64,000 bases of DNA from Nitrosopumilus sp. Lineage in GTDB: Archaea; Thermoproteota; Nitrososphaeria; Nitrososphaerales; Nitrosopumilaceae. Position 1 is the first letter of the stretch. The number at the start of each line of letters is the position of its first letter. Below, piece after piece: positions 59,356 to 63,888 of the stretch. The position numbers and the translations under genes were made by a program. The notes under the pieces are model-generated. The model was not told the DNA's origin, made no database searches, and saw only the letters and a program-made list of their open reading frames with translations. The stretch lies in assembly GCA_963667665.2 (NCBI GenBank), contig OY763927.2:64001-128000 (forward strand), written 5' to 3'.

Positions 59356-59844
59356 TTGCAAGCAGTAACTTCTGATCGATTAGCACTTTTTGTTGAAATG
59401 GAGTCAAAATATGAACAAAAAGATACAGAGTATTTTATTTCTCTTTTAAAACATCCTGATTATGTGGTTAGAACAAGAGCCACCTGTATTTTGGTTGATT
59501 TTGGCGGAGAGGATAAAATTCCCTATATTGCCAACGTTTTAAAAAATGATAAAAACGAATTGGTACGTCATGAGGCTGCATTCTCATTAGGTCAACTGTG
59601 TTACTCTAGTGCAATACTTTCACTATCTGATGCAACACTCAATGATCCAAGTATATTTGTACGACACGAAGCAGCAATTGCCTTGGGCGTTGTTGGCTCC
59701 AAAGAAGCAAAAAAAACTCTGGAAGCTGCATTAAAAGATCCTGATAAGGCAGTAGTTGAATCTGCAATAGTTGCATTATCTAATATTCAATTTATGGAAA
59801 AGTTAAGTAAGAATAAAAAGTTTGCAAAGTTAACAGGTGGATGA
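59356..59844 (+). CDS. HEAT-repeat (PBS-lyase/DOHH-like) protein with two HE motifs
   Basis: LVRHEAAFSLGQ and FVRHEAAIALG repeats. Confidence 0.8.
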   Translation: MQAVTSDRLALFVEMESKYEQKDTEYFISLLKHPDYVVRTRATCILVDFGGEDKIPYIANVLKNDKNELVRHEAAFSLGQLCYSSAILSLSDATLNDPSIFVRHEAAIALGVVGSKEAKKTLEAALKDPDKAVVESAIVALSNIQFMEKLSKNKKFAKLTGG

Positions 59845-59845
59845 G

Positions 59846-60406
59846 ATGAATTTTCCTTTAGGTGTAATAATAATAGTTGGTGTTCTCGCTGCAATAATTT
59901 TAGGATTGATTGCATCATCTCCAGATGATATTATCCAACCAAGAATGATTTCCGATGAGAAAATGGAAATTAAATCAGAACCAACAGCAGTTGTCCAACC
60001 AGAAGCAGCCGAAGAAGAAGTCATGGAAGAGACTATGATGGAAGAAGAAGTCATGGAAGAGACTATGATGGAAGAAGAGACTGAAGAGCCAGAAGCAGAA
60101 ATATCAACAATGGCATTAACAGTTTCAATTCCTAATGGTGTTGGAGCTCCAGGATGTGAAAAAACTAATGAGTGTTATTTACCCTATGAACTTTCTGTTG
60201 CAGTTGGTACAACAGTAACTTGGAGTAATGATGATCTTGCTGCACATACTGTAACCAGTGGAAATTTTCCAGAAGATGATGGATTGTTTGATTCTAGTGT
60301 TTTCATGTCTGGTGATACTTTTGAATTTACCTTTAGTGATGTAGGAACTTTTGATTACTACTGCTTTGTCCATCCTTGGATGGCCGGAATTGTTAATGTT
60401 AGTTAA
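59846..60406 (+). CDS. membrane-anchored type-1 blue copper (cupredoxin) protein with Glu/Met-rich linker
   Basis: TM helix; TW.NDD.AAHTVTSG; YYCFVHPWM ligands. Confidence 0.88.
   Translation: MNFPLGVIIIVGVLAAIILGLIASSPDDIIQPRMISDEKMEIKSEPTAVVQPEAAEEEVMEETMMEEEVMEETMMEEETEEPEAEISTMALTVSIPNGVGAPGCEKTNECYLPYELSVAVGTTVTWSNDDLAAHTVTSGNFPEDDGLFDSSVFMSGDTFEFTFSDVGTFDYYCFVHPWMAGIVNVS
60011..60070 (+). repeat. 2 x 30-bp tandem repeat (EEEVMEETMM)
   Basis: GAAGAAGAAGTCATGGAAGAGACTATGATG x2. Confidence 0.9.
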
Positions 60407-60664: not shown

Positions 60665-61429
60665 ATGCTTAATGAACATACTAAAATGAGTAAACATGCA
60701 CGATTACGTATACATATTGCCCCATTAGGTTTTGAATCTGATAGAATAGTACTTCCTGCTAAAGAGATGAGAGCAGATAAGGTTTGGATCTTAATACATA
60801 ATGATGAGAAACAAACCCAAGCAAAATCATATCTTGATAACACCAAAAGCAGATTAAAGAAAGAAAAAATTGAATTTGAAATTATGACATTGAATCGATT
60901 AGATTTGTCAAGCACCATCAAAGGTGTAAGAACTATTATGAGTGAAGGAAGAGATAATACGTATTATGTTAATGTTTCATCAGGATCTAAAATTCAAGCT
61001 ATTGCATGTACAATGGCTTGTATGATGTTTAATGAGAAAAATAATTTAATTCCTTATTATATTCAACCAAAAGAATATTTTGATTATAATGGGAAGCAGA
61101 TGTCAACAGGATTAGAAAAAATAATCTATGTGCCACAGTATGAAATTAAAACACCTGATAAAAAACTAATACAATCTTTACAAATCATAAAAGAAAATGA
61201 TAATCGAATTACAAAAAGTAATTTAGCAAAAGCTGTAGATAGCAACAAAATCATTGAGATTGGTGCTAAACAAGAGAATTATGAACAAGCAAGGTTTACA
61301 AGTTTGGATAAAAACATAATTCAACCTTTAAAAGAGAATTGGAAATTTATCCAGGAAAGCAAGATTGGAAGAACAAGATGGATTGAGATTACTCCTGAAG
61401 GAGAAAATGTATTGGAAATATTAGATTAG
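60665..61429 (+). CDS. CARF-like (DUF6293/Csa3-like) Rossmann domain plus wHTH transcriptional regulator
   Basis: IHIAPLGFESDRI, ADKVWIL, YVNVSSGSK (CARF motif-II-like), C-terminal wHTH (K.GRTRWIEITPEG). Confidence 0.72.
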   Translation: MLNEHTKMSKHARLRIHIAPLGFESDRIVLPAKEMRADKVWILIHNDEKQTQAKSYLDNTKSRLKKEKIEFEIMTLNRLDLSSTIKGVRTIMSEGRDNTYYVNVSSGSKIQAIACTMACMMFNEKNNLIPYYIQPKEYFDYNGKQMSTGLEKIIYVPQYEIKTPDKKLIQSLQIIKENDNRITKSNLAKAVDSNKIIEIGAKQENYEQARFTSLDKNIIQPLKENWKFIQESKIGRTRWIEITPEGENVLEILD

Positions 61430-61464: not shown

Positions 61465-63888
61465 CTAATTCATTCTAGAAATTTTCGATATCCCATCTTC
61501 TTTTGAAATCTGGAAAATATTATCTACATAGGTTTCAAGCTCTCTTTCATGAGAAACAAGCACGATTTGTTGTGATTTTAACTCATCTAGAACTTCTCTG
61601 ATTTTACCTAACTGATTTTTAGAAAATCCATCAGTTGGCTCATCTAAGATCAACAAGTTTGATTTTAATGACTCTGTCTCTTTTCTCATAAGTGAATTCA
61701 GTGTTAATCTGTATGCTAATGCAATACTGGTCTTCTCCCCTCCTGACAAATATCCAATCTCTTGTTCATATCCATCTTGAATTACAATTGGTGTAAAGTT
61801 CTCATCGATTCTAGATTCTTTAGTGGGGTCCTCAACTAGAATAGAATACCATCTATGATAAGTTTCATTAAAGCTCTGTAAAATTGATAACAATACCTGC
61901 TTTTCAATCTGAGATATGGCAGGAATAAAAAATACAGTTAACCACTCAAAATACTCTGAAAATTTAATATACTCAATTTTCCATTTTTGAGATTCAGCAA
62001 TCTTTTCTTTGTTAATTGTAATCTTTTCTTGTTCATTTTCTAAATTTTGTTTTGATGATGCATTCAAAGCAGAGACTTTGTTGATCTTTTCATTATTTTC
62101 TTTAAATTCTTGCTCAGTTAATCTTATTTCATTATCAATATCTGTAAATGATTTTACTTGTTTTTCAATAATTTGAATCTCTTTTTTGTTTTTTGCAATG
62201 TTACCCTCTAATGATTTCAAACCATTCTGATACTTTGAAATTAATTTCAGAGTTTTCTCATACTTCTTTTCTGTCTCTACTATCATAACTATGGAATTCT
62301 CATATTCTACTAGAGCGTCTTTAAGTGCAGAAAGATACTCTACTGGCTTGCTAGATTCATACTCGAATTTCTCTTTTGGAACCTTATTTTGTATCTGTAA
62401 TTCCTTAATTTTAGCCTCAATTTGTTCAAATTTTGCCGATTTTTCATCAAACTCTTCAATTTGAGGAATCATCTGTTGATTCTCTGATATTTCAGATTCT
62501 AGTTTTTCAATCTCTTTAGATAGTTCTGTGTGATGTTTTTTTGTATCAAAAAATGTGTTTACAATCTTTTTTAACTCTGCATTTAATTTAGCTAGTTCTG
62601 TTTTTCGCTCATTTTCTAATTCTTTCAGATGCCCTGTTGTAATCTTTTGTTCACATACAGGACATTTTGTTCCAAGTTTTGCAAATTTTCCAATATCTTC
62701 TTTTAAGTTTTCTATATTTGTTTCATATTTTGTTTTTTGTTTTTTTAAATTCTCTACTTCTTTTTCACTTTCTTCAAATGTTTTTGAAATATTTTCCAGG
62801 GTTTTTTCTTTACTAGTTGTTTCTTTTTGTATCTCTTTTTTATTTTTACTAGATATTTTACTTAATTTTAAAATTGTTGATGACAATTCTGAGTAAATTG
62901 TCTTTGATTCCACAAGTTCATCCTTGATTTTTTGAAATTTTTCAATCTCTTTTCTGATTTGTATCACTGTTTTTGTTGTTGGCTTTTTAATTTTACTTAA
63001 TTTATCTAACTTTTCTTTAAATTCATCAACTTCTTCTTTTGCATCATCAATATCTATTTTCGCTGATTCAATAGCTGATTCATCATCTGTGATTTTTTCT
63101 TCTAGTTTATCTTTGGTACCTTCAAGTTTCACCTTTTCTAGATTCTGTTTTTGTAATTCTTTTGATCTTTTATCTACTAAGATATTTTTTGACTCTAAAT
63201 CCTTTCTTTCTTTATCTAATTGAATAATCTTTGTATTAATCTCTACAACTAAATTATCTAATGCTTTATTTTTATCTTCTAATTGAGTAGTGTCACTAAA
63301 TCTTTCTTTAAATCGCGCTACCTGTAGTTTTATTGATCCAGCAATCTTTATAGCATTGGCAACTGCAATGGCATAATCTTCAATTCCAAATGCCTTTCTT
63401 ATCGTCTCTAATCGAGTTTTAGTATCTACAAGAACTTTTTTCATCTCTTCCTGAGGTGTATACACTGCATAACGGAAGATTCTACTCACCGATAGTGGAT
63501 TTCCAGGCTCGTTGAATTTAAGAATCTGAAGTATTCGCTGCTTTAACTCTGATGGTGAGAGTGGCTCTTTTTCATCATTTGTTTTGATGTACGAATTTTT
63601 TGGATCCTGATTTACTCCAGCTGATTTTCTTTTGAGTGCTCGCTTTATTTCATATTTCTGATCATCTACCGTAAACTCTAAAATTGCATAGCCGTCATCT
63701 ACTTTTTTTGCAAGAAGGGATTCTGCTTTTTGTGAACCCAAACCAAATAAAGCAAATTCTATTGCCATCAATACAGTGGATTTACCAGAGCCAATATCTC
63801 CTTCAAATAAAGTAATTCCACGTGGAAATTCTACCTCTTCATGAGAGTAACTTCGAATATTCTCCAACACCAGTGAATTAAGAATCAT
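61465..63888 (-). CDS. Rad50/SbcC-like SMC ATPase
   Basis: GDIGSGKST Walker A, YTPQ Q-loop, coiled coils with central CPVC zinc hook, LSGGE, LILDEPT, VSH. Confidence 0.9.
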   Translation of the reverse strand: MILNSLVLENIRSYSHEEVEFPRGITLFEGDIGSGKSTVLMAIEFALFGLGSQKAESLLAKKVDDGYAILEFTVDDQKYEIKRALKRKSAGVNQDPKNSYIKTNDEKEPLSPSELKQRILQILKFNEPGNPLSVSRIFRYAVYTPQEEMKKVLVDTKTRLETIRKAFGIEDYAIAVANAIKIAGSIKLQVARFKERFSDTTQLEDKNKALDNLVVEINTKIIQLDKERKDLESKNILVDKRSKELQKQNLEKVKLEGTKDKLEEKITDDESAIESAKIDIDDAKEEVDEFKEKLDKLSKIKKPTTKTVIQIRKEIEKFQKIKDELVESKTIYSELSSTILKLSKISSKNKKEIQKETTSKEKTLENISKTFEESEKEVENLKKQKTKYETNIENLKEDIGKFAKLGTKCPVCEQKITTGHLKELENERKTELAKLNAELKKIVNTFFDTKKHHTELSKEIEKLESEISENQQMIPQIEEFDEKSAKFEQIEAKIKELQIQNKVPKEKFEYESSKPVEYLSALKDALVEYENSIVMIVETEKKYEKTLKLISKYQNGLKSLEGNIAKNKKEIQIIEKQVKSFTDIDNEIRLTEQEFKENNEKINKVSALNASSKQNLENEQEKITINKEKIAESQKWKIEYIKFSEYFEWLTVFFIPAISQIEKQVLLSILQSFNETYHRWYSILVEDPTKESRIDENFTPIVIQDGYEQEIGYLSGGEKTSIALAYRLTLNSLMRKETESLKSNLLILDEPTDGFSKNQLGKIREVLDELKSQQIVLVSHERELETYVDNIFQISKEDGISKISRMN

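Follow-up and report, generated by a model that had tools for sequence, protein, structure and literature searches.

A half-size HEAT-repeat protein of ammonia-oxidizing archaea as a candidate homodimeric relative of deoxyhypusine hydroxylase

Hypusine, carried by initiation factor 5A (IF5A), is a highly specific protein modification, and how archaea complete it is the question raised by one small gene in a 64,000-nucleotide stretch of the genome of a Nitrosopumilus species (assembly GCA_963667665.2, contig OY763927.2, positions 64,001 to 128,000), referred to here as the window. According to the accessible parts of two papers, from 2016 and 2018, no archaeal orthologue of deoxyhypusine hydroxylase (DOHH) is known (PMC5178350; PMC6105217). 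The same had been said in a preliminary description of the window, and the last step of the archaeal hypusine pathway is therefore open. The gene at 59356 to 59844 encodes a half-size, DOHH-like protein of 162 residues which is probably a di-iron homodimer, and its substrate is plausibly deoxyhypusine on the archaeal factor (aIF5A). This protein offers a concrete candidate gene for the missing step, one that is abundant in very numerous marine and soil archaea, some of which are culturable.

Archaeal DOHH is named neither in the portions available of a 2026 review (PMC13602936) nor in those of a 2021 review (PMC8153317), and the available text of a paper related to Nitrosopumilus mentions the synthase only (PMC8573960). 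Our literature search, whose coverage excluded most subscription journals, found no description of an archaeal DOHH and nothing on DOHH in Asgard archaea. The idea itself is not new to databases, as labels in IMG already carry it: the name "deoxyhypusine monooxygenase" is attached to 9 of the 120 close homologues listed and to 8 of the 120 listed relatives of another family member, P0168. In addition, "(DOHH)" appears in the automatic names of two ESM Atlas clusters.

The gene and the positions within it on which the comparison with DOHH turns are the following:
59356 to 59844, plus strand: gene for the half-size HEAT protein, taken from the list of open reading frames, with a TTG start and its stop codon at 59842-59844 (162 residues)
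59569 to 59574, plus strand: codons of H72 and E73, the first His-Glu pair, placed by the HMMER alignment on H56-E57 and H207-E208 of human DOHH
59590 to 59595, plus strand: codons of G79 and Q80 in the LGQ motif after the first pair, common to both halves of DOHH
59665 to 59670, plus strand: codons of H104 and E105, the second His-Glu pair, placed by the HMMER alignment on H89-E90 and H240-E241 of human DOHH
59677 to 59679, plus strand: codon of I108, in a column where both halves of DOHH have an invariant Glu (HEAxE)
59818 to 59841, plus strand: conserved and probably disordered C-terminal tail KFAKLTGG, with a predicted local distance difference test (pLDDT) score of 59 and 39 in the last two blocks of the model

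The TTG start is supported by the close homologues L016 and L017, which have an ATG at that position and a stop-to-stop frame of exactly 162 residues. Pfam profiles find HEAT-type repeats only: HEAT_2 (E-value 8.6e-23), HEAT (1.6e-14) and HEAT_PBS (7.8e-11), with HEAT_EZ also matched. An AlphaFold2 model built on a 35-row alignment (pLDDT 92.5) begins with a single helix, continues as four helical hairpins and ends in a C-terminal tail of low confidence. The two His-Glu motifs are LVRHEAAFSLGQ (H72, E73) and FVRHEAAIALG (H104, E105). In the model, H72-E73 opens the second helix of hairpin 2, and H104-E105 the second helix of hairpin 3. The protein with four HEAT repeats and two His-Glu motifs set out in the preliminary description is thus recovered in the translation, exactly as given there, as well as in the Pfam repeats and the four modelled hairpins. 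Contigs from two metatranscriptome runs of a single study match parts of the gene, at 59370-59586 and 59437-59708, with two and four differences respectively, and are a weak hint of its transcription; the parts left uncovered carry no meaning.

What links this protein to DOHH is a shared arrangement of motifs. When the PDB is searched by sequence, designed alphaRep proteins head the list and human DOHH (4d4z_A, E-value 7.5e-21) comes out as the top natural protein; 4d4z is also the best natural structural match by fold. Both DOHH halves align to the same residues of the archaeal protein, 38 to 148, with 39.6 and 36.3 bits. In the register of the 4d4z alignment, where the human motifs quoted in the preliminary description are visible, all four human His-Glu pairs fall on H72-E73 or H104-E105, and LGQ falls on LGQ. 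The iron ligands of the human di-iron centre are H56, H89, E90, H207, H240 and E241, while the deoxyhypusine chain is bound by E57, E90, E208 and E241 together with two Gly residues, including that of LGQ (PMC9117371, in the part available). Every iron-anchoring and substrate-binding residue named in that part has a counterpart in the 162-residue protein, and among the substrate-binding positions E73 and G79 align with E57/E208 and the Gly of LGQ.

Eukaryotic DOHH (yeast Lia1; EC 1.14.99.29; human structures 4D4Z and 4D50) and the archaeal protein are both built from HEAT repeats of the PBS/E-Z type. In both, a four-repeat unit carries its His-Glu pairs on the second and third repeats, placed alike along the helices, and the LGQ motif follows the first pair. 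An active unit of DOHH is characterised by two Fe and by a peroxo-di-iron intermediate derived from O2. However, DOHH is a chain of about 300 residues with eight repeats, two loop-joined lobes and four motifs, whereas the archaeal protein has 162 residues, four repeats and two motifs. Since each archaeal chain has two His-Glu pairs only, a full DOHH-type site would require a dimer. The archaeal protein also differs in its extra N-terminal helix, in its conserved C-terminal tail ending in TGG and in the loss of the Glu of HEAxE. This Glu is present in all 17 N-terminal and all 17 C-terminal halves of the eukaryotic set. The preliminary description had cautioned that it is Ile here, and both the alignment and the comparison of columns confirm I108.

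By analogy with the human enzyme, the concave face of each 162-residue chain would bind a single iron by means of H72, H104 and E105. A pair of chains would then face each other in the manner of the two eukaryotic DOHH lobes, building a centre of four His and two Glu at their interface that could activate O2. E73 and the LGQ Gly of both chains would then line a substrate channel suited to a long basic side chain. The likeliest occupant would be the deoxyhypusine side chain made on aIF5A by deoxyhypusine synthase, which the dimer would convert to hypusine.

The residues required for such a site are those that the family has kept. In alignments of 15 and then 35 members, ranging from 27 to 93% identity to the query, E73, H104 and E105 occur in every one of the 35 and H72 in 34, the exception being P0001 with Tyr at this position. 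The pairs are invariant or nearly so across three subfamilies, down to 26-27% identity. A motif pattern finds both of them in 117 of the 120 close homologues listed and in 115 of the 117 full-length proteins of a second homologue list. For comparison, a search of 1.84 billion proteins, in which very long HEAT proteins prevail because their scores add up over many repeats, supplied 45 generic segments, namely the top-scoring domains of such long proteins. None of the 45 has His at either motif column. Columns H72, E73, Q80, H104 and E105 unite the archaeal set with the two halves of DOHH and are rare among generic HEAT repeats; L69, R41 and the aromatic residues at 76 and 146 are partly common to the archaeal set and DOHH. 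The Gln of LGQ, for instance, has a frequency of 0.88 in the archaeal set and 1.00 in both eukaryotic halves, against 0.20 in generic HEAT repeats. Judged from these alignments, the conservation of the His-Glu pairs exceeds chance.

Three subtypes make up the family. The first, to which this protein belongs, ends in RF[A/T][K/R]xTGG and is found in the main families of ammonia-oxidizing archaea (AOA), in family f9, and in f24 and f43 of another class; members from the last two carry the names Candidatus Caldarchaeum, Caldiarchaeum subterraneum, archaeon HR01 and Nitrososphaerota in NCBI or UniRef. The second ends in RAPRP and occurs in families f4 and f7. The third is a more distant paralogue type of about 170 residues, represented by L051/L052 of genome G193, with the motifs VVKHEACF and LVKHEAIESLG. 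This paralogue has kept the HEAxE Glu lost in the main clade. It gives about 27 matches among the genomes of family f1, being present in some or many Nitrosopumilaceae, and was not found in the source genome of the window. Its genes adjoin genes for FkbM-type methyltransferases. The TGG ending is found in all 120 close homologues listed, with the pattern KF(A/T)K(L/M)TGG, while the 117 full-length proteins of the second list include 47 that end in TGG and 62 in PRP. A terminal Gly-Gly is unusual for a HEAT protein.

A natural model for the postulated dimer is P0121, a protein of 363 residues that emerged from the representative search. It has two tandem copies of the module, with four His-Glu pairs in all, and shows about 55% identity to the query. 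In the module tree its halves are each other's nearest relatives and stand next to the window protein, which indicates a recent and independent duplication. P0121 was folded with archaeal single modules only (alignment A3, 31 rows, free of eukaryotic DOHH), and the resulting AlphaFold2 model has a pLDDT of 83.6 and a predicted template modelling (pTM) score of 0.81, with residues 1-43 disordered. The N-terminal extension of about 45 residues is hydrophobic as well as disordered, and the start may be wrongly called. Foldseek aligns the P0121 model to human DOHH over 308-313 columns with a template modelling (TM) score of 0.79, normalised to DOHH, a value that may owe something to mere likeness as the PDB used to train AlphaFold2 included 4D4Z. 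The other chains listed reach 0.52 at most. Among these are the eight-repeat proteins 4zv6_A (0.45, with a root-mean-square deviation of 14-16 Å), 1oyz (0.40) and 5n3u_A (0.35). From these scores, the two modules are predicted to pack face to face in a clam shape, as the lobes of DOHH do, instead of forming a continuous solenoid.

An enzyme of this kind would depend on oxygen, and the distribution of the gene falls within that of haem-copper oxidase. The source genome measures 1.89 Mb and is 99.97% complete; close homologues of the protein carry the NCBI name Nitrosopumilus. A motif-pattern scan of species genomes found 524 stretches, 394 of them relatives, and the best 80 are all of the Nitrosopumilaceae type. 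Within a sample of its class, 238 of 301 genomes have a match: 177/180 in family f1, 9/9 in f2, 34/39 in f3, 3/3 in f4, 5/9 in f7, 3/4 in f5 and 1/1 in f9, with no match in f10 (0/10) or f12 (0/17). These tallies take in three genomes flagged as unpublished (G132, G231 and G282), on which no other result rests. In a wider sample of 401 genomes of the phylum, strong matches (E-value of 1e-20 or below) were found in 70, and all 70 encode subunit I of haem-copper oxidase (COX1, PF00115). None of the 268 COX1-negative genomes in this sample has a strong match, while the family is missing from 63 of the oxidase-bearing genomes, including all 15 of f33. Ten of ten further carriers outside the main AOA families (f4, f7, f9, f24 and f43) have COX1 too. 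As the carriers represent a few lineages only, the association is to be read as a consistent pattern, without statistical weight. Five of the carriers that lie outside the main AOA families gave no match to the amoA profile PF12942, a null that says nothing about ammonia oxidation there because the profile matched no control either. In G193, the orthologue of the gene appears as two distant pieces (C1:815674-815898 and C1:1373294-1373536), each beside runs of N, so that masking is a more probable cause than a genuine split of the gene.

The source genome has the remainder of the pathway. It encodes an aIF5A with the loop SKPGKHGSAK and two distinct deoxyhypusine synthases, at C1:932422-933276 and C1:466737-467627, in frames of 325 and 365 residues. 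A third synthase match, at C2:4572-5426, duplicates the first with the same score and looks like an assembly duplicate. The same two synthase types occur in all ten related genomes checked, in some of them as convergent neighbours. On contig C1, directly downstream of the aIF5A gene, lies a gene for a 229-residue protein (locus L168, 689-1378, minus strand), which by its sequence resembles an ATP-pyrophosphatase of the diphthamide-synthase-like kind.

Physical linkage between the HEAT gene and this pathway was found in f24, the Caldarchaeum-like family. Among 18 genomes compared, with genes called at an E-value of 1e-30 or below, ten have the HEAT gene, and nine of the ten carry a deoxyhypusine synthase gene on the same contig at a distance of 0.16-7.3 kb. 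In genome G475, for example, the HEAT gene is divergent from a synthase gene across a spacer of 75 bp, with another synthase gene immediately after the first; G625, of the same genus, retains at the same place a HEAT remnant with an in-frame TAG. The other genus of this family has an aspartokinase gene and three molybdo-dehydrogenase genes between the HEAT and synthase genes. Two Caldarchaeum-like genomes (L175, L176) have the HEAT gene divergent from a ThiS/Urm1-like gene. With synthase linkage in one of the eight lineages examined, the support that it lends is real but modest.

The restriction to oxidase-bearing genomes, the synthase linkage in one lineage and the DOHH-like predicted fold of P0121 together support a function as DOHH. 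That the protein is a homodimeric, half-size di-iron oxygenase of the DOHH type, for which deoxyhypusine-aIF5A would be the most plausible substrate, is nevertheless a tentative proposal, to which we give somewhat less than an even chance. A number of observations weigh against it. The HEAxE Glu column holds I, V or A across both the TGG and the RAPRP clades. Taken as a whole, the family's sequence resembles generic prokaryotic HEAT repeats more than DOHH. With a hidden Markov model (HMM) of the archaeal family, the C-terminal halves of DOHH reach 49-90 bits, 16 of the 17 lying at 62-90, and the N-terminal halves 52-73 bits, and the best generic HEAT domains overlap them at 60-90 bits. In hhalign comparisons, the main archaeal clade obtains 202 with the generic profile and 152-153 with the two halves of DOHH, while the DOHH halves score 112-122 against the generic profile. 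When the four His and Glu columns are masked, archaeal-DOHH scores of 127-128.5 stand against 114-123 for generic-DOHH. By these scores DOHH has more in common with the archaeal family than with generic HEAT repeats, although little of the difference is left when the motifs are masked. The generic set was picked for its likeness to the query, and its scores in these comparisons are inflated accordingly. In a tree with the motif columns removed, the split of generic rows from archaeal and eukaryotic rows has a Shimodaira-Hasegawa-like approximate likelihood ratio test (SH-aLRT) value of 44. To the same side belong the training-set likeness behind the P0121 match, the fact that P0121 is a single representative and the absence of such a tandem double from 251 Nitrosopumilaceae genomes. 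So do the eight f24 genomes (completeness 78-95%) that lack the HEAT gene, when all 18 have the synthase. No linkage to synthase or aIF5A genes was seen in the source genome or in the one or two genomes each of f2, f4, f5, f7, f9 and f43; the nearest synthase genes in these unlinked lineages are 19, 42 and 114 kb away or on different contigs. Finally, our literature search found no work on hypusine in Thaumarchaeota.

Some of this evidence bears on ancestry more than on function. By sequence comparison, the archaeal family looks like a little-diverged PBS-HEAT protein, and its kinship to DOHH appears less specific than the motifs suggest. Of the preliminary proposal of an archaeal DOHH, the size of one half, the number of repeats, both His-Glu pairs and the LGQ Gly have stood; the overall sequence, being nearer to generic PBS-HEAT proteins, has not followed. 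The absence of the gene from part of f24 indicates that it is dispensable there, which fits a dispensable finishing step, as the hydroxylation is in yeast according to the accessible part of a 2016 paper (PMC5178350).

The same enzyme chemistry could, however, serve a different purpose. The protein may be a dimeric di-iron HEAT oxygenase of the same kind that acts on a small molecule, for example in quinone or polyamine metabolism, or on another protein side chain, a possibility that we regard as somewhat unlikely though worth keeping in view. It would account for the replacement of the invariant DOHH Glu of HEAxE and for the family's own conserved C-terminal tails, TGG or RAPRP, which have no equivalent in DOHH. 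It would also suit a gene context that is not conserved and in which no hypusine genes adjoin the HEAT gene in the source genome and six other lineages. The paralogous His-Glu HEAT proteins (L051/L052) of some Nitrosopumilaceae suggest more than one substrate within the superfamily, and restriction to oxidase genomes fits any O2-dependent enzyme. Against another substrate stand the retention of the substrate-binding Glu of DOHH (E73) and of the LGQ motif, as well as the sole conserved linkage found, which is to deoxyhypusine synthase; none of the neighbours in the window points to an alternative. A protein without catalysis, either a protein-binding scaffold or a metal-binding or sensing protein with a structural or storage metal, we consider unlikely. 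Loose iron-related neighbours in single lineages, an iron-dependent repressor gene in L037 and a ferritin-like gene in L174, would agree with a metal-handling role. A scaffold or metal store would be harder to reconcile with the near-invariance of exactly the four residues of the DOHH metal site across three subfamilies, with the absence of the gene from all 268 oxidase-negative genomes of the sample and with the DOHH-like clam predicted for the tandem double. The TGG tail is accounted for by none of these three readings, neither DOHH, nor an oxygenase with another substrate, nor a non-catalytic protein.

HEAT repeats of this type are also found in phycobilin lyases, and one NCBI record of the family bears the name "PBS lyase". 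That name reflects the repeat type only (Pfam HEAT_PBS), and identity as a CpcE/CpcF/NblB-type protein is highly improbable. The NCBIfam matches are weak and far below their cut-offs: NblB 36.3 bits against 300, CpcE 22.1 against 330, CpcF 15.9 against 220 and CpeY 20.8 against 600. It is these scores that set CpcE/CpcF and NblB apart from the archaeal protein, the generic segments compared above not being CpcE or NblB themselves. Archaea are not known to have phycobilisomes. The designed alphaRep proteins that head the PDB search are an artificial consensus of small thermostable prokaryotic HEAT-like repeats which forms a continuous solenoid, and in the alignments shown their variable positions carry no His-Glu pairs. 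Escherichia coli YibA (1OYZ), a small bacterial HEAT_PBS protein of unknown function, matches in sequence with an E-value of 6e-07, much weaker than DOHH; it is a continuous eight-repeat solenoid, with a TM-score of 0.40 to the P0121 model, and is not known as a metalloenzyme.

If the DOHH function is accepted for the sake of argument, a further question is how the archaeal and eukaryotic proteins are related. In the boldest version, aIF5A would be fully hypusinated in AOA and the Caldarchaeum-like archaea by a homodimeric half-size DOHH that is a surviving relative of the form before duplication. Aerobic archaea would be the origin of O2-dependent hydroxylation, the eukaryotic enzyme would be a fusion of two copies, and P0121 would repeat that fusion independently. 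We consider this scenario doubtful. The eukaryotic N- and C-terminal halves form one group in the module tree (95), which fits a duplication on the eukaryotic side, the tree being unrooted. As the tree has three clans, sisterhood of the archaeal family and DOHH cannot be read from it, which also counts against the proposal, and the earlier suggestion of a pre-duplication ancestor is not separable from its alternatives. If the protein works as a homodimeric DOHH, it would illustrate how a symmetric homodimer gave rise to a two-lobed, pseudo-symmetric metalloenzyme, and it would link the hydroxylation step to oxygen-respiring archaea. A different substrate would instead provide a second reaction for what is otherwise a single-member class of HEAT-repeat di-iron oxygenases. 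In either case the half-size family would leave hypusine unaccounted for in Sulfolobus and in those anaerobic archaea from which it has been reported, and another enzyme must serve there. Sulfolobus acidocaldarius is listed among archaea in which hypusine has been detected, in the available part of the source (PMC5178350). This species, used as a control genome in the profile search, has no HEAT_2 match at all, so the family cannot be the general archaeal DOHH.

The surroundings of the gene in the window are mixed. Neither a deoxyhypusine synthase nor an aIF5A gene lies near the window in the source genome, and no conserved gene partner was found when the window was compared with eleven other loci, the context varying between families. 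A redoxin-like gene is a neighbour on the opposite strand. The stop of the HEAT gene is overlapped by 8 bases by a gene of the plastocyanin/azurin family. The neighbours with coordinates are the following:
59837 to 60406, plus strand: plastocyanin/azurin-family gene (Pfam Copper-bind), whose product starts with a hydrophobic segment and includes a repeated linker that is acidic and rich in Met and Glu
60665 to 61429, plus strand: gene for a protein with an HFX_2341/Csa3-like Rossmann domain and a winged-helix C-terminal domain (CARF-like regulator), adjoining the Rad50 gene
61465 to 63888, minus strand: Rad50 gene

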